Shown here piece by piece: positions 11,811-50,563 of a DNA stretch of 64,000 nt (position 1 is its first letter; each line of letters begins with the position of its first letter). This DNA comes from Callorhinchus milii. Lineage: Eukaryota. The stretch is taken from positions 124,188,001 through 124,252,000 of the forward strand of contig NW_024704742.1 of the NCBI RefSeq assembly GCF_018977255.1, given 5' to 3'. The notes under the pieces were generated by a model. The model was not told the origin of the DNA. It made no database searches and saw nothing but the letters and a program-made list of their open reading frames with translations. The position numbers and the translations under genes were made by a program.

Positions 11811-12050
11811 TAATAATAATAATAGTCTTTGCATTTGATATTGTGCCTTATCACATCTTCGAGAAGTCTCAACTCACTTCACAGAACATACTGTGAGTGA
11901 ATTGATCGTATATTTTATGGGCAAAACACAGCAGCCAGTTGCGCACAGGAATGTCCCACAAACAGTCGTGGATCGAGTCACCACATCTTTTTTAAGGAAT
12001 TATTACCCTCCAGAAAAGTGATCCACCAATCGACTAACAATCGGATTCCA
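11811..12050 (-). mobile_element. SINE body and tail (long variant, head missing)
   Basis: (TAA)n followed by ttgcatttgata...gcagccagttgcgcacag...cccacaaacagtcgtgga...aatcgactaacaa. Confidence 0.8.
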
Positions 12051-20501: not shown

Positions 20502-20930
20502 TTAAGCCTTTATCTTCACCACCAGAATGCCATCATGACAGAACACAGCAGAAAGATCCTTTGCCTCCAAACCATCCGATAGTTTATATTGTCTTGTAAA
20601 GCTCCTTGAAATAAAGCCATGCTCATCCATCCTTCGTCTATGCTGAGCTCTAATGAGAAGCCATCCTTCAAAGACCTGAATCATGATGTCTTCGGGGCGG
20701 AACTGCACCACATCCAGCATGATTTCAAACGGTATTTCCTCCTTGTTGGGCTCTGCCAGTTCAGCTGAATCCTCAGACGAAAGTTTGTCCTTTTCCCTGT
20801 GTCGCTGCGCTGGGCCTGGCAGTGCAAACAATGAGTGATCCAGTTTGCATTGCACCAGATCCTGTTCTACTATCTTGTGTTGGTAACGGACAGGAGTATT
20901 AATCCAATGCCTCACAATTCCTTCTTCCAT
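20502..20930 (-). CDS. HSPB3: Heat shock protein beta-3 (small HSP with alpha-crystallin domain), intronless, 142 aa
   Basis: Translation [17 protein letters not shown]...[13 protein letters not shown]...[30 protein letters not shown]...[31 protein letters not shown] aligns with human HSPB3 (MAKIILRHLIEIPVRYQ...). The start is set at Met42 of the 183-aa ORF, which aligns with the human Met1. Confidence 0.96.
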
Positions 20931-21009
20931 ATTATTGAATGGTACAAATATAAAAGCTTCCCCTTGTAGAGTGTTCCTTTTTGTTTTTGCAATGTCTTGG
21001 ATCAGCCTC

Positions 21010-21080
21010 CAGTTGAGGCAGCTGTTGTTAGTTCTTTGCCAAGGTTTTGTCATTTGAAGTTGTCATTCACCCTCTTATAG
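21010..21080 (-). promoter_or_regulatory. HSPB3 core promoter candidate: TATA-like box plus two E-boxes
   Basis: Minus-strand CTATAAGAG at 21072-21080, ~145 bp above the ATG. E-boxes CAGTTG (21010-15) and CAGCTG (21019-24). This is consistent with a muscle-expressed gene. Confidence 0.5.
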
Positions 21081-34959: not shown

Positions 34960-36650
34960 GAATCAATACCACCCAATGTACACCGACGCAGCGGTGCCTT
35001 TCACGGCGGGAGGATGTCCAAAAGCGCTCGACAATTCAGGTTGGGCACTGGAGCTGAGGGTGGGGGTGGTTCAGCGGAGAGGGGGGGGGGGGCAGCGGAG
35101 GGGCGGGGGCAGCGGAGAGGGGGGGGGGCAGCGGAGGGGGGGCGGGGGCAGCGGAGAGGGGGGGGCGGGGGTGCGCGGAGATTTGACTGATCACCGAAAG
35201 CGGTCAAAGAGGTGGTTTGAGGTGTATCTTGAACTTGAAAGAGAGGGGAACAAGTCAGAGGGGAGAACAGAATCCCAGAGAGCCAGAGCCCTGCCCTGCT
35301 TTGCCTGCTCTGCCCTGCCCACCTTGCCTGCCCTCCCTGCCTTGCCCTGCTTCCCTGTCCTGCCCTCCCTGCCCCACCCTCCCTCCCTGCCCACCTTGCC
35401 CTCCCTGCCTTGCCCGCCTCCCTGCCCTGCCCTCCTCCCTCCTGCCCTCCCTCCCTCCCTGCCTTGCCCTCCCTCCCCTGCCCTCCCTCCCTGCCTTGCC
35501 CTGCCCTGCCTTGCCCTCCCTCCCTCCCTGCCTTGCCCTCCCTGCCCTCCCTGCCTTGCCCTCCCTCCCCTCCCTGCCCTCCCCTCCCTGCCTTGCCCTG
35601 CTGCCCTCCCTGCCCTGCCCTCCCTACCTTGCCCTCCCCTCCCTGCCTTGCCCTCCCTGCCCTGCCCTCCCCTCCTTGCCTCCCCTGCCCTCCCTGCCTT
35701 GCCCTGCTTCCCTGTCCTGCCCTCCCTGCCCCACCCTCCTCCCCTGCCCACCTTGCCCTCCCTGCCTTGCCCGCCCTCCCTGCCCTGCCCTCCCTCCCCT
35801 CCTGCCCTCCCTCCCTCCCTGCCTTGCCCTCCCTCCCTGCCCTCCCTCCCTGCCTTGCCCTGCCCTGCCTTGCCCTCCCTCCCTCCCCTCCCTGCCTTGC
35901 CCTCCCTGCCTTGCCCTCCCTCCCTCCCTGCCCTCCCCTCCCTGCCTTGCCCTGCCTGCCCTCCCCTCCCTGCCCTCCCTGCCTGCCCTCCCTACCTTGC
36001 CCTCCCTCCCTGCCTTGCCCTCCCTGCCTGCCCTCCCCTCCTTGCCCTCCCTGTCCTCCCTGCCTTGCCCTGCCCTGCCCTCCCTTGCCCTGCCCTCCCT
36101 GCCTTGCCCTGCCCTCCCTTGCCCTGCCCTCCCTGCCTTGCCCTCCCGGCCCTGCCCTCCCGGCCCTGCCAAGCAGTGCAACACAAGATCACATTTGCAA
36201 CAGAGCCCCTTTCACGTCGGGAGGGAGGGAGGACGTCCCGAGGCGCTGCGGGGCCCCCAGTGTGTGGAGCCGAGGCTGTGCCGCCCCCTCAGCCCCTGAA
36301 GGCCTGAGGCCTCCACCCCACCCCACCCCCCGCTTCCGGGGTCATTCAAACCCGCTCAAACGTCTGCGATCAGATGACCCGACGTGTGAGTGAGTGAGTG
36401 AGTGAGAGAGAGAGAGGGGGAGGGTTTTGTGTGTGTTTTCTCGCTTATCAAATCGCCCACTGGGGGAATAGAAGTGTCTGAGCTGCAAATCCAGGGGCGG
36501 CCTCACAGGACAGTACAATACAGTACAGCACTGCACTGCACTGGAGGCGAAACCCTTCCTCCCCCCCGGACTGGATGCACTGTGTGTTGAGCTGTGCCGC
36601 CGGGGATGTGTGAGCCGCGGGTGAGGGTCTGCACTGGTACCTGACACACA
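34960..36650 (+). promoter_or_regulatory. GC/CpG-rich region; probable upstream ARL15 promoter
   Basis: CpG clusters at ~34960-35200 and ~36210-36620, GC boxes, and an ETS-like CTTCCGG at 36333. It lies just upstream of the MDYL exon and is divergent from HSPB3, as in human. Confidence 0.55.
35288..36170. repeat. C-rich low-complexity satellite built from CCCT/CCTG/CCTTG units
   Basis: About 880 bp with almost no A on the plus strand. An internal duplication is visible: gccctgcttccctgtcctgccctccctgccccaccctc at 35344 and 35701. Confidence 0.95.
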
Positions 36651-37118
36651 CACCACTCACTCACTCACTCACACACACACCACTCACTCACTCACTCACA
36701 CACACCACTCACTCACTCACACACCACTCACTCACTCAGTCACTCACACACACCACTCAGTCACTCACTCACACACTCACACCACTCACTCACACACTCA
36801 CACCACTCAGTCACTCACTCACACACACACCACTCACTCACTCACTCACTCACTCACTCACACACACACACCATTCACTCACACTCACACCACTCAGTCA
36901 CTCACACACACACCACTCACTCACACACACACACCACTCACTCACTCACACACTCACCACTCAGTCACTCACTCACACACCACTCACTCACTCACACACT
37001 CACCACTCAGTCACTCACTCAGTCACTCACACACACACCACTCACTCACTCAGTCACTCACACACACACCACTCACACACTCACACCACTCAGTCACTCA
37101 CACACACATCACTCACTC
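36645..37118. repeat. Compound (TCAC)n/(CA)n microsatellite
   Basis: Read directly from the sequence. Confidence 0.95.
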
Positions 37119-37234
37119 AAGGAAGACAAGAACTACAGTGGACTCTGAAGCTGGAGAGGCCTCTCTCCCTTCTCCCCCCACTCCCCCCCCCCCCCCCCCC
37201 CCACACTCCCTCCCTCCCTCTCTCCCTGGAGTAG

Positions 37235-37246
37235 ATGGATTATCTG
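37235..37246 (+). CDS. ARL15: Candidate ARL15 first coding exon (MDYL, phase-0 donor)
   Basis: ATGGATTATCTG followed by the donor gtatgt. Human ARL15 begins MSDLRITEAFLYMDYL-CFRALCCK, with exon 1 ending at MDYL as recalled. Position and orientation match HSPB3-ARL15 synteny. Only 12 nt, so support is limited. Confidence 0.6.
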
Positions 37247-38589
37247 GTATGTCTGTCTGATATATATATATATATATATATTATTTTTTTGACTGCTTTC
37301 CTGGCTTCCTGCCAAATGCGTATTTTCTTTCGCCTCTTCACTTGATTCTGGATCACCTTCGGCTTTGGTTTCCTCCTGGGCTGTGGCGTCCCAAACAATA
37401 AAGTGGGGGTTGCATGGGTTTTTGGCGGTGGAAAGTCCCTTCATCCACTGGGCTGCAATGAACGAGATTGTAATTAAGTTCTGTACCCCGCAAAATGCTT
37501 GTCTGATTTGTAGAATAATTGGTATTTTTAAACCGTGTTATTGTCCTTTGCCGCCTCCTGTTATTGTGGGATTTATGCCTGTGAGTTATTGTGAGCTAAG
37601 GCCACGTCTTGTGTGTGTAATCCTATTTTGTTCGGTATAATTATAATTGTGATCTTGGTCTCATTTCCTTGAAAATCATTGTTTTGGTGCAATACCTGAA
37701 GATTAAATCATCCCAGAGTTACAATAGATCTTGCATTTGGCATAGTGACATCGGGAGGCCGTTGCAAAGTGCTTCACGGATACATGGTAAAGTGGAGTGA
37801 CTGTGTATTTTGTGGGTGAAAACGGCAGGTAACTCGCCAACGGCAATGCTCCACAAACAGCCGTGAAGTGAGTGGCTAATTTCATTTGGGGGATTGTTGG
37901 CAAGGACATGTTACCATAGCTGTAAACATTGGCAATTTTGAGCTATTTGGAATTGAAAACACATTCAAAGGAAAATGTAGATTGAATCCCTACAGAATTC
38001 TTTGGCTTATTAGTACAATATCTTTACTTTATTAGCAATTTAATAATGACCGTGTATGCTTCAGTACAGTTTAAATGTAATTTACATACAGTTAGGCACA
38101 GAGCCATGGAGAACCTAATGTCAAGGTTATTACTTGACTTATCTATACAATATGGGTTAGTCAATACACTGGAGCTGGATGCATTCCATTGGAAGGTGTT
38201 GTCAACTGCACTGTCAATCTTTAGACAAGGTATAGTGTTATTGCAACTTTTATTGTTTTGTAAGTGTGGCGTGATATTTTCATGTAGTTGTGGCAATGTT
38301 TGGATGCTGATTGCCCAATAGATCTGAAAACACAAAAGTAAGTAAACAGGATCTCAACAGAATAAATCTTTCAATGATTGCTTTGTTAAAATGTAAAACG
38401 GAACAGCAAGGGTGGTGTCTCCTGTAATTGTATTATTTTTATTTTGTTTTCCCAGCATTTATAAATGGTTATTTTCTAAAACAGAGGGTAGTTGTGTAAT
38501 AGTTACTTCATTTACTGAAAACTATTGTAGGATGTATGACTATGACTTCTTATCAGCCAGGGCTGAATTTTTGGTTTTATGATTCTAAC

Positions 38590-39560
38590 TCGCCTTTGGC
38601 ACCAATTTCCCTCTCGCCAAACACACTCCATCAGGCTACACCTTTCATCATACGTACCCCAACTGTCATGGCAACAGCTTAGCATCTATTCCAGCTCCCA
38701 AATCAATCTATCCCCAAACTCCTTTGGTACTTGACTTCTTTTGAGTTCCTCACCCCTCCAATTTCTCCCTTAAAGCCCACATTGTCTGCTGCTCCCCTAA
38801 ATCACCAGGCACATTTCTCTCAGACATAACTCACTTATCTTCCCTCACCATCTGTTCCAAACAGCTCCTCATCTTGGGCAATGCCAACCTCCACTTCACC
38901 CCTGCTTGTCTCATTTTTGCTGACTTCTCCCTTTCCCTGAATCTCATCTTTCACATCTCTATGTCTCCACATAGCCACTCACTTGACCTGGTAATTACCT
39001 GAGACCTTTCCATTTCTGACAGCTCCGACAAAGATTGACCTCATTTCAGTCAACAGATCTGACTGCAACACACAAACATTGCACTCTCGTCTCAGCCAAA
39101 TTGTCTTTCTATCTCTAAGATCATTCTGGTAGGATAGGGGATCAAAAACGACCCTAGGCTCCTCTCTTCATCAGAAACCAATTCCTCCGCCCATCCCTCC
39201 ATCATTAGCTCCAACTCCAAATGCAAGGAGGTGATTGATGTCCTCCGGTCCCATACTGCATGGATTCGCTCAGCTGCCTCCATCTCTGCCAGCCCCTCGA
39301 TCCATACTTTTGATTCTAACTCCTCCTCATCCCCCTCTTTCCTCCAATGCTATAATGACTGATTGACTGTCAAATACAAAGTCCTCTATGAGCTCTAACT
39401 GCATTAATCTGCATCGACGCTCATTCCACCTCATGGAGCTGGTGCGGAACCTCAGGGCCGTGTTCGACTCCCAACAAACCGTACACCTGGGCTCTCAGCT
39501 TTCCTTCACCTCCATTTCTGCCACTACCTCTCTATCTTCAGTGCAACATCCTCCTAATCT
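38590..39560 (+). mobile_element. Highly decayed L2 fragments (endonuclease region and downstream pieces)
   Basis: C/T-rich strand with remnants LLILGNANLH, HSHSLDLVIT and VRNLRAVFDS. Confidence 0.55.
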
Positions 39561-42355
39561 AGGCATCAATCCCTCATGATCTCTAGCCCGCATGTATTGG
39601 AAAATCTCTTTTGTGTATGTCTAATGTCCCAATTACTAAATTCCTTTATTCAGTGAGGTCTTTAATTTTAAATCATTCTCTCTAATATTGGTGCTATTAA
39701 AAATAAAATGCCAGATGAGAACCTACTAACATGTTTATTTGGCATCAAATACTATTTTCAATAGTACAACAAACCTTCTCTAAGATACATTATATGCTTC
39801 CTGTATTTCAACTTTTTCACTTAAGCTTTCTTGCTGTTTTGCATTCCATTCAAAATACTTCTCGCTAGTAATTGAGCAGGTCATGCTATTTTTGGAAAGG
39901 TAGGACTCTACTGATGCATGCTCACGCATATATTGGTAGGGATTTGAAAATCTTGATCTTCTCTGAGCAATGATCTGTCACCATTATTATGATTGGAGAT
40001 AAATTAACTTGGCTGAAGATAAAGATATATATTTTAAAAGAATAAGAGGTGAATGCTGGGTTAGGCAGCTTTCACCCCGTATGAACAATTGCTTCCTCCT
40101 CCCTCCATTTTTGTGCATTTGTTTAAAAAATTCTATTAATTCTCTTGAGACCTCATCTTTCTTATTCTCTCTGTGCAGGAGAAAGCTGTTCCATTATCTA
40201 ATACGCACAAAACAAGTGCAGAAATTTGTATTGAGAATTGCCTAGGACGTTGGGTGCAAGGCGCCTGAGCTGGGAACAATCGTCAGCTGTTGAGTGTGAA
40301 GCAGTTCTGACGTGTCCTGAATTGGGTGATTTCTGATCAATAGGCAGAATTGTTTGGATACCAACTTCTGGTATGTCACGCAAAACTGTTCTCATGTGCA
40401 TTAGTTGATCCCATCAGAGTAATTCCTCAGTGCAAGGCTGCCAAGAGGGGGAATAATCCAAATTACGGACATCTTGTACCAGATTGGGAATTCTTAATGT
40501 AATTTGCTCTTTGATATCCTCCTCTAATAAATGTATTGTAAATACAGCTACCTCTCTCCTCACTGGAATTGAGTTTTAATGGAATTTAGAATACAATTAA
40601 ATAACGTGGATAAGTGGTATTAAGTGACATAATTTTATGATTTAAAAAAAACTGCACATGTTGGATATCTGAAATAAAAACAGAAGTTGCTGGGAACACT
40701 CAGCAGGTCAGGCAGCATCTATGGAGTGAGCAAAATGAGAGGAAAGTTTACTGTTTTGTGAGTTTCATCTTTGAGGTATGGGGAAGAGGTCTCTCTCTAA
40801 ATGTCTTGTTTGGGGGGAGACCTTCTCTGGTTTGAGCTGCCTCCAAGATTATGTCTTTGGAAATGGAATATTGTAATCGTGTCAACTCTCTGTGATTGTC
40901 TCAGTAGTCTGGTTCCTGAGCCAGGCAGGTCCACAATTCTCCAAGGCACTGTTGATGGCAGACCGGATAGCCTGACTTGTACGTAAGACTTGGAGGTACA
41001 GAGATTTATTCCACTCGTCTCCTATTATTTCCTCCAAACCAAATTCCTAACTGGTAGGGTGGTCTGAGCTGGACAAGCAATGGGAAGTTTGCCAGATAGT
41101 GCTCAAGGTGGCAAGCTATGTGGTTTTAATAATAATAATCCTTGCATTTAATATAGCGCCTTATCACGTCATTGAGAGATTGCAAAGCACTTCACTGAAT
41201 ATACCATAAAGTGAATCAACTGTATATTTAACTCCCAACAGTACCCCGGCATACATTGTGGCATCCTCAAGCCTTAGCTCTTGTCAACCTGCACCTAATA
41301 CTCTAGGGAGGGAGTGTACATTCCATTCTGGACACAGGGAATTTGCCATGGCATACATACGTGAAATTCTCAGTTTGGTTTGAATACTCGTAAGCATGGT
41401 AAAAAGTTTCTGCATTTGTTCAGACACACAGTTGACCAAAACAATGACATTTTACCTTTAATTGTGCCAATATGTGTACAATATTGTATTTAATGTAATG
41501 CATGGAGCCTGTCAGAAACTAAAGCTAACAGTGTGTAAAATAACTCATTGAAAGGAATTCTACAGAGGTATTGCAAGAGAGAAACAGAGGTCTCTCACTA
41601 AATGTCTTGTTTGGTTTTAAATAACAAAATTGAAAAATCTAATGACTAAAATAAATACAATGTCAAATTGCAAACCTAGAGTAGTTTTTATTCTCGTTTT
41701 TGTTGCTTATTAGAAATACTAAGAAAAGAATTTAGAGCACCTTTTATTTTCTAGCTCTGTATGTGAGGGAATTTTTACACAGGCCAGCACTAATGGTTCT
41801 GACAAAAATCTGGCTTCCCTGATCTCCATCACTGCTAAAAGCAAACAGTTTTTATTTGGCTGCATGATCGACCAGATGAATATTTAAATCACAATTGAAA
41901 TATCTTTCTAGCACTTTTGTTTACATCACCGCTGCCTTAATGCTCAAGAATACCGGGGCAGAATTACCATATATAGCACTGATACTTAAAGTGATTCCTT
42001 CTGATTTGGAATTTGCTGCTTGTTGGCGATAGTTTAAGTAGTTTTGAAAATATTTCTCTATTGTATTCATGGACCGGGGTGTGTTTGGGGTGTGTTCTTA
42101 TCTCTTAAGAGACATGTTTTGGGGGTCAGCAGTGTGTCTGACTCACACGGAAACCTATCAACTTGTTTGAAATTATCCAAATCAGATAGAGTTCCACCTA
42201 GGTACTTATGCATGGAAATTTCCCAGGGTCTGAATGTGCATTCTCTCCCTGGAGTGATGCACCCTGCTTACCTGCAGAGTATATGATTCAGGTTAGTGAG
42301 AGCCAAAGTTTTGGAATTTCAAAACATGTGTTGAAATACTGATGGAGTTTAAAAA

Positions 42356-42790
42356 AATTGATCCTTGCATTTGGAAAAGCACCTTCCACGTCAGCACGAT
42401 GTCCCAAAGCACTTCACAGAATATCCTGTGAAGTGCATTAACTGCATCTTGGAGGCAAAAGTGGAAGCCCAATTGCATACAACAATGTCCCATAAATAGT
42501 CATGAAATGAAAGACCCATTTTATTAGGGGATTGTTGGCCAGGATACCAGGAGAAACTCCCTTCTCTTTTCGGATAGTTTAACGGGATTTTTAACGCTCA
42601 CCTAAACAGCCTGACGTGACCTCAGTTTAACGTCTAATCCAAAGTACAGCACCTCTGACAATGCAACACTGCCTCGGGACTGTGTTGGAGTGTCAACTTA
42701 GTTAGATGAGTTCAAGTCCCAAAGTGTAGCTTGAAACCACAGCCTTCTGACCTTCTGAGGCAAGAGTGTTACCATTAAGCCTGGCTGACA
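42356..42790 (-). mobile_element. Deu-domain tRNA SINE, near full length
   Basis: Tail at 42360, core cctcagtttaacgtctaatccaaagtacagcacctctgacaatgca, head ccttctgaccttctgaggcaagagtgttacca. Confidence 0.78.
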
Positions 42791-43429
42791 CACAGTTGTG
42801 CTTAACCAGTTACTACTGCATTGCTTACCATTGAAAGCACTGATTGTCAAACTTACCACTGCTTGTCCAGCTTGGATCATCCTACCCATTAGAGCTTTGC
42901 CTTGCAGGGTTAATGGAAACTGAGTGGGAAGAACCTCCCCTCCACCTTCCCCTTAAATGAAGTCTGGACCTCCAAGTCCTGAAGAGCCAGTCTAGCTCTT
43001 CTCTCACTTAGTACCTTGGAATACTGTGGACCCACTTGGCTCAGGAACCTGAGCCTGCCCCAGAGGGTTGACTTCATTCTGATATTCCGCTGCCAAGCTT
43101 AGAGTCAGCTCTGCCCCAAACATTTGATCCAAAGCAAAATGTGTGTCCCATCACTCTGCTTTCAGTGCAGGTTATACAGTAAGTATGATAGTCTATGTAC
43201 TTACTACAACACATCAACAACTTGCAGTTCTATAGTGTTTATATGTAGGTAATTATATGTAGGTAATTATATGGTTGCTTGAAAGATATAAATGCAATTT
43301 ATTGTACTATTTTCCTACTTCTGCATATATGTGATGCTACAAAGGAAGCAAAATACTATTTTGGACATTGTCAGTGCTATATTAAAACTGTTGCCTGTCT
43401 CCATGCCTTCAATAATGACATGCCTTATA

Positions 43430-43802
43430 TCTTCAAGATCATGAAAGGTTTTGACAGGCCAGATAGGGAAAAGCTGTTTCCGCTGGTAGGTGTGTCTGTG
43501 ACTCGTGGTCACAGTCTTATGATATCTACCAAAAGAAGCAGAGGGGAGGTCAGAAGAAATGTTTTCACTCAGCGAGTTGTTAAAATTTGGAATGATCTGC
43601 CTGAAAGGGCAGTGAAGTCTGATTCGATAACAGCTTTTAAGAGAGAACTGGATAGGTATCTGGGGAAGACAGGTTTGCAGGGTTATGGGGAGAAAGCTGG
43701 TGAGTTGGGTTAATAAAAGTCAGTTGCTCTATCAAAGAGCCGGCACAGACTCGATGGGCCGAGTGGCCTCCTTCTGTGCCGTAACATTCTATGATTCTAT
43801 GA
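43430..43802 (+). mobile_element. CR1 LINE 3' end
   Basis: FKIMKGFDRPDREKLFPL...TRGHSL...FTQRVVKIWNDLP, ending in (ATTCTATG)2. Confidence 0.92.
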
Positions 43803-44574
43803 TTATGCTACTAGTCATAGAATCATTAAAAATGTATTAATGTTTACATGCCACAAATACCATTAGTAACACACGTGTTGCAATATACTCCACTTAGTAA
43901 CACAATGACCATAAAATCTGCCTTATCTTTTAATTGCAGCGAAACCCTTAAAGGGTACACTAAACTAAAGGTCCTCTAAAATTATCATATTAATCTTTCT
44001 CATTGTCAGCTACTTTATTACTTTGTTATGACAATAACCTGCGACTTCCTTACTATTTATAATATAACCTGAATGTTGGGACTCATAGATTTTGCCTGGG
44101 ATCATATCTGTCAACAGTATGACAAATATACTGAATGTTCTTTTTGTCTTATTTAACCTGTTTTCCATTGTATTACGTGCGGTTGAGAATGTGTATTTAT
44201 AACTTGCCTGTGAGCTCCTGCATTCTAGAGGTGATATCTATTCTTTATGGATTTCTACAATGTGTTGTAAAAAGAGGATGTTGCCGTTTTGTTCAAATAA
44301 GGTGACTGAAGCTTAAGTTTGTTGTGGGAATTGAACAGATTTGTTTTGGTTTCACCTAATCTGTGACTACATCTTAAATGGTGAATAAAGCAGAAATAAA
44401 TCAAAATTCTCCATTAATGAATTTGAGGTTTGAATGACTGGTTAATGCAATGGGATGATTATACCCCATTATCTCAGTTTTGCAGTACTTTTAACAATTA
44501 TAGTTTATATCTTCTAACCCAAAGTGAATAAGGAATTAATATTTTTTTGTGCATGATTTGAGTTGGAACCTTTT

Positions 44575-45985
44575 TTGACCTCTCCTCTGCGGTCACCTTT
44601 CTCCTCCATTCTTGATTCCCTCGCTCCCCTCTCTTCCCGAACCGTCTCCTACTCACGCAAATCAGCTTGGTACACCAGCCACCTCCGCCCCCTTAAAGCC
44701 CAGGCGCGGTCCGCTGAGCGCACCTGGCTTAAATCAAACCTAACTGTCCATCGGAAGATTTAGCTGGACCTTGTCAAATCCTACCGTTCCGCCCTTGCCT
44801 CCGCTAAATCGTTGTTCTACTCTAAGACAATCTTGGAGGCTAAGGACAACCCCAGGCTCCTCTTCCCCATCTACAACCAGCTCCTCTACCCATCCTCACC
44901 TCAAATGCCAACTACGAGACGATGTTGGACTTCCTCGAATCCAAAGGCGAGGGAATCCGCTCAGCTGCCTCTGCCACTGCAACTGCTAACCCCCTCCATC
45001 TCCTCTTCCCGCCCCAGCCCCTACCCACCCCTCCCTCCACATCTTTGAAACCATCTCCTTCCTCTTTCATCACCACCATAATCCGTATGAAACCCACCAC
45101 CTGCTCCCTCGACCCCATCCCTACACCCCTCCTTACCTCCCATCTCCACCTCCTTGCCCTTGTGCTAACTAACATCGTAAACCTCTCCCTGTCCTCTGGT
45201 ACTGTATCCCACCCTTTAAAAAACGCTGTCATCACTCTTATCCTTAAAAAAACCCTCCCTGGACCCTTCTCTACTCCCTAACTATCTACCCATCTCCAAC
45301 CGCCCCTTCCTATCCAAGGTCCTGGAATGAGTTGTTGCTTCTCAGCTTCGCTCCTTCCTCTCCCACCACTCCCTTCTCGAACCCCTCCAATAGGGCTTCC
45401 ATGCCGCCCACAGCACAAAAACCACCCTGGTCAAAGTGACAAATGACATTCTGTTTATCTGCATCCAGGGCTCCCTCTGCCTCCTCGTCCTCCTTGACCT
45501 CTCTGCTGCTTTCGACACCGTCGACAACTCTGTCCTCATCCACCGTCTCTCCTCTCACCTCAACCTTTGGCTCTGTCTTTGATTGGTTCAGATTGTACCT
45601 CTCACACCGCCTGCACTTCATCTCTTCAAACGGCTTCTCCTCTAGCCCCCGGACCGTCTTGTGCAGTGTTCCTCAGGGCTCTGTCCTTGATCCTCTCCTC
45701 TTCAACATCTATATGCTCCCTCTTGGTGACATCATTCGTAGACATGAGGTCAATTTCCACATGTATGCGGATGACACCCAACTCTACCTCTCTGCCTCCA
45801 CCCTTGACTCCAGGACCACTGCTGTCCTGACAGAATGTCTGTCAGACATCAAGTCCTGGATGAGAGCTAACTTTCTTCAGTTGAACGTCAACAAGACTGA
45901 GGTTCTCCTGATTGACTCCTGTCGGTGCCTCCACACCTGAGGCGTTGACAGCATCACCATCCATGGTTGCACACTCCACCTTTCT
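44575..45985 (+). mobile_element. L2 LINE ORF2 fragment with reverse-transcriptase core (disrupted)
   Basis: [55 protein letters not shown] and DIKSWMRANFLQLNVNKTE, with stops and frameshifts. Truncated by a SINE tail at ~46000-46148. Confidence 0.95.
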
Positions 45986-46859
45986 ATTAGAAAGATTCTT
46001 ATCACTTTGTGGGACACTCTGTGCGCAATTGGCTGCCGCGTTTTGCCCGCAAAATATAGTCAATGCACTTCATGATATATTCTGTGAAGCGCTTTGAGAC
46101 ATGTCGAAGATGTGATATGGCATTATATCAAATTCAAGGATTATTATTGGTATTGCAATACTTTAATCCAAATTTTAGCTTGCAGAATATATGTTGCTTC
46201 TCAGTCATTTCCAGACTTTTTTTTCTGGAAGTCTCATCCTTTGCAATCATAATTAGAACATTCCACAACAGCCTTATATAAAGCCTTATGCAAAAATGTG
46301 TACCTTGTTACGTTTGCTGTAAATAAGTGCTGATGATAAATTATCTACAGTGGATTTGCACTTGGTGTTTTGACAAAAAAAAGTCTTGATTATGTGTTAA
46401 CACGAATCTTAGATTTTCCATCCAGTGGATAATGAAGAGCAAATGTCCATTGACACAGATATTCGAACTTGATTGAATTTAAGCAAGGACGACTGGTACC
46501 TCTATTGTTTTTCCGACAGAGCCATGTTTTATTTCCATTTTAGGCTAGATAATGATCCTTACATTTAATATAGTGCCTTTGACGTAGTGCCTTTCATGTT
46601 GGAAGGATGTCTCAAAGCTTATAAATAGTAGAATCATTGGTTATCAAATATACAAACATATTTTGGAACTGATGACTAATAATGGTAGGGACTACATAAG
46701 AAATCAGGAAGCGATGAATATCTGCTATTTCACTATCCAGATACAGAAAGAGCAAAACAGACAATTCAAATTAAGAACAACCAGTACTGGCAGAACAGGG
46801 AAAATAGAAATAAGCAGAGATAAGGCCTAACCAATTGGCAAACATCGCAAGCAGGATCA

Positions 46860-46978
46860 GTCAGGCAGCATCTACGGAAAAGGAAAGTGAAGGGTCGTGG
46901 ACCCAAAACTTTGACTCACTTTCTTTTCTCCATAGGTGCTGCCTGACCCACTGAGTGTTCCCAGCGACTTCTGTTTTT
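46860..46978. repeat. Palindromic repeat (Penelope-like derivative suspected)
   Basis: gtcaggcagcatctacggaaaaggaaagtga pairs with tcactttcttttctccataggtgctgcctgac. A half-copy lies at ~40670-40730. Confidence 0.6.
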
Positions 46979-47865
46979 GCCCCAAATAAAATTGGTCAGT
47001 CACTACATGGCTGTTAGTGGGACATAGCTGTGCGCAACTGGCTGCCACATTCATCCACAAAATAGTCAATTCATTTCACAGTATATCCTGTGACATGCTT
47101 TGAGACATCTCGATGATGTGATAAGGCTTTATATCAAATGCAAGGATTATATTATTTCCCCCCTTCTCCCCGACTTGGGATACAACAGTCAGTTGTATGA
47201 AACGATTAAAAATGTCCTCCTGACATGAAATAACTTTACCTTAATGTAAAGCTTGTTTTGTTTGTATAGTATTAGAGTGTTTCTGTTACTCTGCCAATGC
47301 CACCAGATGTGAGCAGGTTGCAAGAATTTTGGCTGTAATTCTCCTTTCTAACTACAGTCTGATCCAATTTTCTGATCGCGACATACATCTGTTTTCCAGG
47401 TTCATAATTATTTATAATCATCAGAGAAGAATGAGACTGACGCTTTTGTTAATTCTAAAATTCTATTTAAACCTTGCCCAAGCTATAATTCAACTTTCTG
47501 TTTAATATTGATGCTCTTCAATCAACATGTTCTACTTATATCTTGGTAAAGTTGGTACACATTTTAGGTAGCATTTCTTTGTGTAGTGTTGTGTTTTCAG
47601 CATGAGACAGAGACATGCAACAAGCTAAGAAATCTGTATGTGTGAGTGAATGTTTTGCAATACATAATAAGGAGGAACAGAGACTTTGGGAACTATGCTT
47701 AACACTTTCACAAAATAGCTACATAAAGATAACTTGGTTCTATCATGGTAAACATAACAGAGTGAATAGGAACACAAACCAAATAGGATGCAGATACGCT
47801 GGGTTGTAAATGTGGAGAGGGAAGATGAATGACTGAGCAGGAATAGACTCAAGATAGTAATAACA

Positions 47866-48230
47866 TATAATAATTTTTGCATTTGATATAGTGCTTTTCA
47901 CGTCTTCTAGACGTCTCAAAGCGCTTCACAGAATAGACTCTAAAATCAATCGACTGTATATTTGTGGGCGAAACGCAGCAGCCGATTTGGTCACTCAATC
48001 CACAAACAGTTGTGGATTGAGTGAACAAATTATTATTTTTTTTGTTTGAGGGATTATTATCCCGGGAAAAGCGATCCTCCAATCGACTAACAACCAGGTT
48101 CCTACTTACTCCACACGCCTGTTTAGCAAGCAGTAAGGAAACTTGCCCAACATTTCGCCCTTTGGAAATCTAACCCAAGTCTATTGCTTGTGAGGCGAGT
48201 GCTCTAACCACTGAGCTACAGGACTCCACA
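47866..48230 (-). mobile_element. Full-length tRNA SINE (long variant)
   Basis: Ends gagtgctctaaccactgagctacaggactccaca, the reverse complement of the SINE head. Confidence 0.92.
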
Positions 48231-48373
48231 CAGCAACACACAGATAGAGTTGTATGTGATGCGGGGCGCGTGGGTGGACAGAAATGGAAATACGCCCCCC
48301 CCCCCCCTCCCCAAGAGGGTCTCTCAACCACCCAGAGAGGGTCTCTCATTAAACCCCTGCCTAGGATCTCACC

Positions 48374-48545
48374 CCCTCACACCCCCAACCCGCGAGGGTC
48401 TATCAGCCCCTCACACCCCCAACCCGCGAGGGTCTATCAGCCCCTCACACCCCCAACCCGCCAGGGTCTATCAGCCCCTCACACCCCCAACCCGCGAGGG
48501 TCTATCAGCCCCTCACACCCCCAACCCGCCAGGGTCTATCACCCT
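48374..48545. repeat. 34-bp minisatellite, about 5 copies (CCCCTCACACCCCCAACCCGCSAGGGTCTATCAG)
   Basis: gggtctatc recurs at 48396, 48430, 48464, 48498 and 48532. Confidence 0.93.
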
Positions 48546-48854
48546 CTCCCCCACCCAGAGAGGTTCTCTCATTAACCCCCCAGAAAGAATCTCTCATTAC
48601 TCTCCCCTCCCTCCCCCCCCCACCCACAGAGGGTCTCTCATTATACCTCCCCCCCACCCCCTCCCCCCCCCCACACACACAGAAGGTGCTCAGCACCCGA
48701 CCCCAGCACGAGAGGGTTTCTCGCCCCCCAGGGAGAGGGTCTGTCAATACCACCCGGAAAGGGTCTGTCACTGGCCCCCAAGTGTGTACCCCTCCCCCCC
48801 CCCCCAGTGGGCCCCCTCCCTCTCAGTGTGTGGCCCGGGGCGGGGGCCGGGAAG

Positions 48855-48908
48855 ATGGCGGAGTGGCTGCAGGTGGCGGTCGCGGTCTGCAGGATCGGCG
48901 CCTACACG
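48855..48908 (+). CDS. Candidate first coding exon MAEWLQVAVAVCRIGAYT (phase 0), probably an alternative ARL15 N-terminus
   Basis: Strong start context aagATGG inside a CpG island, 18 codons with G or C at every third position, and a donor ACG|gtagga. It has the same phase and strand as the MDYL exon. The ARL15 assignment is by position only. Confidence 0.6.
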
Positions 48909-49769
48909 GTAGGAGCTGCTGACCTGAGGCTCGGGGGCGGTGGGTAGGGGGGGCGAGGCCGGGGCCGGGGCCGGGGCTGAGCCGGGGGGGGGGGGGCAGA
49001 GGCCTGTCTGCCGGATCCGGGGCCTGGAAGCCGCCCCGGGTCGGCGTCTGACCGGCCCCGGGGGCTGGGGGCCAGGCCTGGGGTTGGTGGGGGGGGGCAA
49101 ATCCCCGCTCACATCGTTCATAAACACACAGAAAACTGAGGAAATCAAACCAACTATTATTATTATTATTGTTAATTATTATTATTATCAATCGCAGAAA
49201 AACGCCGACTGGGTCATTGATCGACAATCCTCCTCGTGGGGGGGGGGGAGCCCCCACATCATCATCATCATCAATAGTAATAGTTAATAATTAATATTAA
49301 TTATTAATGATCCTCGCATTTGATATGCAATAAAAACACCTCGCGTTCACGTAGGGACCTTCACGCAGCGTGGCGGAAGGTTCCGGAGCCTGACAACGAG
49401 CCGTGGGGGGAAGGGGAGGGGGAGGGGGGGCGGGAGGTCACCGTAACCACGGTCAAAAAGGAGGGATTTTAAGGGAGGGACGGATGGAGGGAGGGAGGGA
49501 GGGCGAGGGATTGAGGGAGGGAGTTTCGGGGCGGAGTGGCCGTAGTCACGGCCACCGATGGCGGACCGGACCGGACAAGCAGACGGCCGGAGCCAGCGAG
49601 TGGAGGCGGCGGGTGGGGGTAGTGGGGGGGGGGGGGGGTAAGCGAGGGCATGAGGGGATTTGAAATCTTGAAATCGATCCGTTCAGTAATTGGGAGCGAG
49701 GACTGATGTAATGCGGGTCCGGAGTTTTGTGCGGGTGAGCATCCAGGCGGCAGGAGTTGTGATATACAA

Positions 49770-50563
49770 CGAGAAAATTACATTTGTATAGCGCCTTTCA
49801 TGTCGGGGGGGGGGCGTCCCAAGATGCTGGACAGTCAGTGTTTTGGACCTGAGCTGTGGGGAGGGTGGGGGGAAATCGAGGCAAGGGAGGGGGCCAGGCA
49901 GAGGGACTGTGGGATGGCGTTCCAGAGGGTGGGAAGGGGCAGAAGGCCTGTCCACCAATGGTGGGGTGACCGAGGCGGGGGACGTGAAGGAGGCTGGAGC
50001 CCGCTGAACAGAAGGAGCAAGCAGGTTGGTAGGGGGTAGGAGGCCGTAGAGGTAGGGGGGAGCAAGACCATAGAGGGCTTTGAAGGTGAGGACCAGGATC
50101 TTGAACTGTATCCTTTGTGTGATGGGAGTCGGGCAAGGATGAGAGTGATAGGGTCACGGCGCCTGGTGCAGGAGAGTTCTGCAGAATTCTGGATGATCTG
50201 TAGCCTATGGAGGGAGGAGTTGGTGAGGCCGACAAGCAGGGAATTTGCGTAGTCAAGCCTGGATGTTATGAATGCATGTATGTCTAAGCGGCCTGCGGTG
50301 TGAGACAGTGTCGGCGCCGGGCGATGTTGCGAAAGTGGGGGAAGGCAGAGCGGGTCATGGTACGGATGTGGGATAGAAAGGATAGTTGAGAGTCAAACAA
50401 GATGCCAAGGTTCTGGACTGGCTTTGCAAGGAGGAGTGCGCATCAATAGACGGTGATGCTGTCAGTGCCTGAGGTGTAGAAGTGCTGATGGGAGCCAATC
50501 GGGAGAGCCTCGGTCTTGTTGACGTTCAACTGTGGAAAGCTAGCTCTCATCCAGGACTTGATA
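49770..50563 (-). mobile_element. L2 LINE 3' portion
   Basis: Reverse complement of the L2 family seen at 24540-25320, e.g. ggaccaggatcttgaactg and gtcttgttgacgttcaactg. Confidence 0.9.

Follow-up and report, generated by a model that had tools for sequence, protein, structure and literature searches.

We analysed a stretch of 64,000 nucleotides (nt) of the Callorhinchus milii genome (NCBI RefSeq assembly GCF_018977255.1, contig NW_024704742.1, positions 124,188,001 to 124,252,000 of the forward strand; hereafter the window, numbered from its first letter), which holds 5' coding exons of the GTPase gene ARL15. Three short exons lie on the + strand, each pairing a start codon with a phase-0 donor: exon A0 (36606-36620, five codons, MCEPR), exon A (37235-37246, four codons, MDYL) and exon B (48855-48908, 18 codons). 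An initial annotation, made from the letters of the window, had described A and B as alternative 5' exons of ARL15 and had overlooked A0. Both are indeed ARL15 5' exons, and in annotated proteins a single cysteine-cluster exon follows the homologues of either one; the protein models show this shared downstream exon behind B and A0 in C. milii itself, and behind A in other species. In C. milii ARL15 isoforms X1 and X2, three clustered cysteines come right after the junction, and the exon that encodes them lies outside the window, in which a six-frame motif scan found no ARL15 exon-2 or GTPase motif.

Exon B starts with an ATG whose Kozak context is strong, with A at -3 and G at +4; it reads MAEWLQVAVAVCRIGAYT and runs into the donor GTAGGA, as first described. 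On a rough position-weight score its donor ranks at the 96th percentile among the 3442 GT sites of the + strand. A 40-residue query around the exon gave one match among 25 candidates, C. milii ARL15 isoform X1 (XP_042191239.1), residues 1-18 of which are 100% identical to exon B, with an E-value of 0.64 that is due to the shortness of the match. The next residue in X1 is the first of the segment that carries the three-cysteine cluster. Furthermore, X1 contains a Pfam Arf domain (E 1.8e-36), is 80% identical to human isoform X4 and has at E 1e-40 a sole PDB match, ARL15 itself (8F6D, an entry without the N-terminal region). Within the leader, exon B of the window is identical to human X4 at 11/18 positions and to the Trichoplax protein at 9/18. 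From its identity to X1, exon B is assigned as an ARL15 N-terminus of the likely ancestral type (see below), with a cysteine at position 12 (Cys12).

The initial annotation had also proposed two GC-rich promoters. Of the two exons, B alone lies in a CpG island (48750-50500; GC content 0.60; CpG observed/expected ratio (o/e) 0.69, the window as a whole having 0.36), which is likely its own, downstream promoter; the GC-rich sequence before exon A is mostly simple repeat. Two candidate acceptor-like CAG sites precede the exon B ATG on the + strand (48788-48826, ends at 48807 and 48826); they are out of frame with exon A and could link non-coding upstream exons to exon B. A 34-nt minisatellite of 5.3 copies (48369-48548) lies about 300 nt 5' of the exon.

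Exon A0 is 5/5 identical to the part of C. milii ARL15 X2 (XP_007890386.1) that precedes exon 2, and its donor, GTGAGG, reaches the 99th percentile on the same score. It sits 615 nt 5' of exon A, within a moderately CpG-rich piece of 478 nt (36171-36648; GC content 0.61, CpG o/e 0.54), a candidate upstream promoter and 5' untranslated region that is possibly common to A0 and A. The A0 peptide carries a cysteine at position 2, and records from other species were not seen to have this leader. A look through the window for ten further leaders annotated in chondrichthyans gave no independent convincing match; one leader of Ensembl type matched exon B at 9/18 residues.

Exon A consists, as initially reported, of an ATG and the codons for MDYL followed by the donor GTATGT (98th percentile), and is orthologous to the end of the first coding segment of human canonical ARL15 (NP_061960.1, 204 amino acids). 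The latter has the same GTPase domain and three-cysteine cluster, and the A peptide forms the end of its leader; it differs in having no B and in a 12-residue upstream extension, which in the window is barred by an in-frame TAG directly 5' of the exon A ATG. The window has a single copy of the MDYL+GT pattern on its + strand and none on the - strand, while about 0.003 strict copies would be expected by chance downstream of the HSP20-family gene described below. Among chondrichthyan records, 14/40 have an A-type protein start.

The alternative that survives best concerns the standing of exon A, which might not be an independent first exon; it might instead be a second donor of an A0-region exon reading through the CACT array that separates the two, or a microexon spliced after A0. 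A pyrimidine tract with a tandem AG pair (37210-37234, + strand; AGs ending at 37231 and 37234) directly precedes the exon A ATG, a possible acceptor that would make exon A an internal microexon of 12 or 15 nt. In addition, there is no CpG island at A, A0 is a near neighbour upstream, and the A0 ATG, if read through unspliced, would open merely a 12-codon upstream open reading frame. However, no retrieved record has the A peptide directly behind that of A0, and in other chondrichthyans 13 leaders of four residues have A as the start of the protein. We regard this alternative as a serious minority view, and it alters the number of promoters, not the choice of isoforms. A second possibility is that exon A is a relic in the chimaera lineage, where B would be the working first exon and A0 would have replaced A at the upstream promoter. 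The C. milii cluster has B-type and A0-type proteins and no A-type protein, the Kozak context of exon A is weak (T at -3), and repeat arrays occupy the region upstream, but all four codons are preserved together with a good donor, and sharks and tetrapods have the identical peptide; we consider a relic unlikely.

The distribution of the leaders among vertebrates was taken from a search with C. milii X1, which gave 408 matches at E 1e-60; 120 of these were listed, and cluster look-ups contributed further records, no more than 15 from each cluster. In total, 230 named vertebrate records were sorted by lineage from their source names, with five unnamed ones left out. B-containing and A-only records numbered 14 and 14 of 40 in chondrichthyans, 20 and 20 of 48 in ray-finned fish, 6 and 8 of 18 in amphibians, 20 and 16 of 54 in sauropsids, and 22 and 25 of 70 in mammals, the rest carrying other predicted leaders. 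A- and B-type starts are annotated in every jawed-vertebrate group sampled. Mammals with B records include human, other primates, bats, whales, otters and marsupials. Human isoform X4 (XP_016865087.1, 206 amino acids) begins with B, X3 (XP_011541802.1) has A, one residue and then B, and X1 carries B behind another leader. In rodents, B was seen in 0/8 records, a small and selected sample that may point to a loss in this group.

Tetrapod annotation also has B as a cassette that follows A in frame. Such A+B fusions were found in 19/142 tetrapod records versus 0/88 fish records, and one is the curated Xenopus laevis RefSeq protein NP_001086404.1, in which the B methionine is changed to valine. 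The same valine stands in the frogs (four records), and because it replaces the B methionine, frog B is usable only as an internal cassette exon. An in-frame A+B cassette was also considered for C. milii and judged unlikely: there is no AG three bases before the exon B start, the AG adjoining that start is without a pyrimidine tract (0.32), and none of the 40 chondrichthyan records is A+B.

To place the two leaders in time, distant relatives were drawn from a search of 1.84 billion representatives, from which the 31 listed at ≤55% identity were taken, three of them without a P-loop in the record. When the GTPase domain alone was used for grouping, 19/28 distant proteins joined nine vertebrate ARL15 proteins with a support of 100/100, and nine tandem-Arf proteins fell outside. 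Two of the 19 have an N-terminus too short for comparison, leaving 17 to be scored against a vertebrate-B profile. Ten of these beat all 2000 shuffles, three matched weakly (25-47 of 2000) and four showed no match; the cysteine is kept in nine of the ten clear matches. The A-type motif was found in 0/17, and against the mammalian long-A profile no score was better than 63 of 2000. Named orthologues with a B-like N-terminus come from Trichoplax, Oscarella and Pomacea, and human B is identical to the Trichoplax leader at 10/18 residues. Ala10, which was not part of the pattern used to select B variants, is present in 38/38 of those from vertebrates. Since the sponge, placozoan and mollusc orthologues begin with B, we propose that B is likely the ancestral, pan-animal N-terminus of ARL15, and that A is likely a later vertebrate addition upstream, now the mammalian reference form. 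The direction of evolution would then probably be the reverse of that implied by the initial annotation, with A the newcomer and B the old leader.

Two reports state that ZDHHC3/7 S-acylate human ARL15 at each of Cys17, Cys22 and Cys23 in a cooperative manner, that the protein needs this acylation to bind membranes and to reach the Golgi, and that it is not myristoylated (PMC13196370, PMC8689486). These three cysteines lie 3' of the junction and are common to all ARL15 forms. The expectation that the 18-residue leader would be more hydrophobic and add a cysteine is borne out: with B the mean hydropathy of the leader rises to 0.98, whereas shark A has 0.22 and the canonical leader of human ARL15 0.32. 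Cys12 lies seven residues before the first acylated cysteine and, in a helical-wheel projection, at 20 degrees from Cys19, on the same face. B forms have one extra cysteine in the chimaera and most teleosts and two in sharks and amniotes, the second at position 4. We suggest that B would form a hydrophobic helix that continues into the cluster of cysteines and so lengthen the membrane-lying helix, and that it would add membrane contact, probably with Cys12 as the site of a fourth acyl chain. B probably extends the membrane helix and supplies a fourth acylatable cysteine; it would shift ARL15 towards longer membrane residence with the GTPase domain unaltered. Elasmobranch B leaders start with Met-Gly and have a cysteine at position 4; the chimaera has Ala2 in place of the glycine. 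The elasmobranch leader may therefore have gained N-myristoylation, which is absent from human ARL15. The usual N-myristoylation motif is not fitted by the glutamate that stands as the fifth residue after the methionine of elasmobranch B.

It might also be that exon choice is purely a matter of transcriptional regulation, the leaders leaving targeting unaltered and the three exon-2 cysteines sufficing for it. All acylation sites known to be needed lie 3' of the junction and four-residue leaders are widespread, but regulation alone fails to explain why the B sequence has been kept from placozoans to humans, also as an internal cassette, and we hold this explanation to be improbable. The initial suggestion, by which B would be an isoform of cartilaginous fish missing from mammals, can hardly be maintained: the human and mouse reference proteins are without B and so are the few rodent records, but the 22/70 mammalian records with B, human X1, X3 and X4 among them, refute it at the annotation level.

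Together, our analysis points to the following arrangement, to which we assign a probability of about 0.78 as a whole. The three phase-0 coding exons A0, A and B would be spliced alternatively onto one exon carrying the three S-acylated cysteines, and the same ARL15 GTPase would receive a leader of five (A0), four (A) or 18 residues (B). Exon B would be transcribed from its own CpG-island promoter and A0 and A from the upstream promoter, with promoter or splice choice setting the ratio of ARL15 forms. B would be the ancestral leader, whose helix adds membrane contact, and A the vertebrate addition.

Several observations weigh against this arrangement. At the RNA level, a source search on 48560-49100 found none recorded as RNA, and the three presumed-RNA runs contained a fraction of 0.08 of 51 words, which weighs neither for nor against; among the joints and loose ends listed for these three contig sets on 37121-49100, in tables filled by interspersed repeats, none falls at 37246 or 48908. 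The contig depths in the bin of exon B (4.5, 14.4 and 20.2) are circular, as the runs were chosen by that very stretch. An A-type start is found in none of the three C. milii cluster members (X1, X2 and one UniRef model), so the use of exon A in this species is argued from conservation, and the region around it (37120-37600) has a CpG o/e of 0.34, close to the window average, and is not a CpG island. The vertebrate counts are of records, most of them predicted (XP_) models, and not of independent events. As for ancestry, the distant orthologues were found by a B-type query with one representative per 50% cluster, which could hide A-like isoforms of invertebrates; no record from lamprey, hagfish or amphioxus was identified among those retrieved; and that Cys12 and Arg13 never vary among the 38 B variants of vertebrates is a circular result, both residues being part of the selection pattern. 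With regard to the helix, the AlphaFold model has one over residues 2-20, but with a predicted local distance difference test score (pLDDT) below 50 for residues 10-32 it is too weak as proof, and the best hydrophobic moment is not diagnostic, at 0.44-0.48 for B forms, 0.27-0.34 for A forms and 0.48 for the polar A0 form.

The exons themselves are part of existing databases: automated annotation has already placed B and A0 in the RefSeq set of C. milii, and A and B orthologues in those of many other species. These predicted RefSeq isoforms comprise exons B and A0 themselves and the A and B orthologues, on the same cysteine-cluster exon; they differ from what is described here in being database models without a functional description, and the ancestry of B is not in the annotation. 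The design is familiar as well. ABL1 (1a/1b) and PDE10A (A1/A2) have alternative first exons that switch lipid anchoring, and like ARL15 they join short alternative N-terminal exons, which set lipidation and location, to one catalytic body. There the anchor is present or absent, whereas in ARL15 the acylation core is constant and the exon would tune it. The value of the finding thus lies in the ancestry of B and in the putative human isoform; the system itself is of a known kind.

In the literature searched, there was no description of ARL15 N-terminal isoforms, their function or their ancestry, although subscription papers and supplements may hold one. Such isoforms go unmentioned in the accessible portions of PMC13196370, PMC10348743, PMC5740500, PMC8395343, PMC8689486, bioRxiv 2022.08.18.504432, PMC11855589 and PMC9352346, and the papers on ARL15 acylation and structure, as far as their accessible text goes, use the canonical human or mouse form or the isolated GTPase domain. 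A mutually exclusive exon cluster of ARL15 is mentioned in the available part of PMC5740500, which exons being unspecified there. In mouse islets, an Arl15 cassette exon is included differentially and in a strain-dependent manner, with percent-spliced-in (PSI) values of 0.613 vs 0.103 (PMC8395343); the text and one supplement of that paper give no coordinates, and the exon cannot be tied to B.

What the two leaders mean for human cells is a more tentative matter. Our proposal, to which we give somewhat less than even odds, is that the ARL15 form studied in human cells is a derived one, and that B, as old as sponges and placozoans, was retained in jawed vertebrates and serves in humans as a regulated isoform of four to five cysteines with different targeting. 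ARL15 is a regulator of CNNM/TRPM7 magnesium transport and a metabolic gene known from genome-wide association studies (GWAS). If the proposal is true, the B isoform would have different access to CNNM/TRPM7 or to Golgi partners, at a diabetes GWAS locus, and fishes would use B as a first exon, tetrapods either in that way or as a cassette. With its extra cysteines beside the acylation sites, the conserved and apparently ancestral B leader would let isoform-specific targeting be tested in human cells directly and at low cost.

The remainder of the window holds one neighbouring gene and several repeats. A single-open-reading-frame alpha-crystallin/HSP20 gene (20502-21053, - strand; Pfam PF00011, E 2.7e-15) lies divergently, 15.6 kb upstream of exon A0; the initial annotation gave it the name HSPB3, the gene with which human ARL15 is stated there to lie head-to-head. 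Most of the GC peak 5' of exon A is a GCCCT-type simple-repeat array of 883 nt (35288-36170, CpG o/e 0.06), and a CACT microsatellite array of 471 nt without any CpG (36649-37119) lies between A0 and A. The two arrays flank exon A0, and the GCCCT array gives rise to a spurious 443-codon open reading frame rich in Pro, Leu and Cys (34976-36307). Positions 1-500 of the window are GC-rich and CpG-enriched (o/e 0.62) and could form the next gene's promoter end. The six-frame scan also revealed several copies of one interspersed repeat, near 11945, 12455, 17400, 18158 and 32616, and reverse-transcriptase fragments resembling those of long interspersed nuclear elements lie at about 13121, 43420 and 45443.

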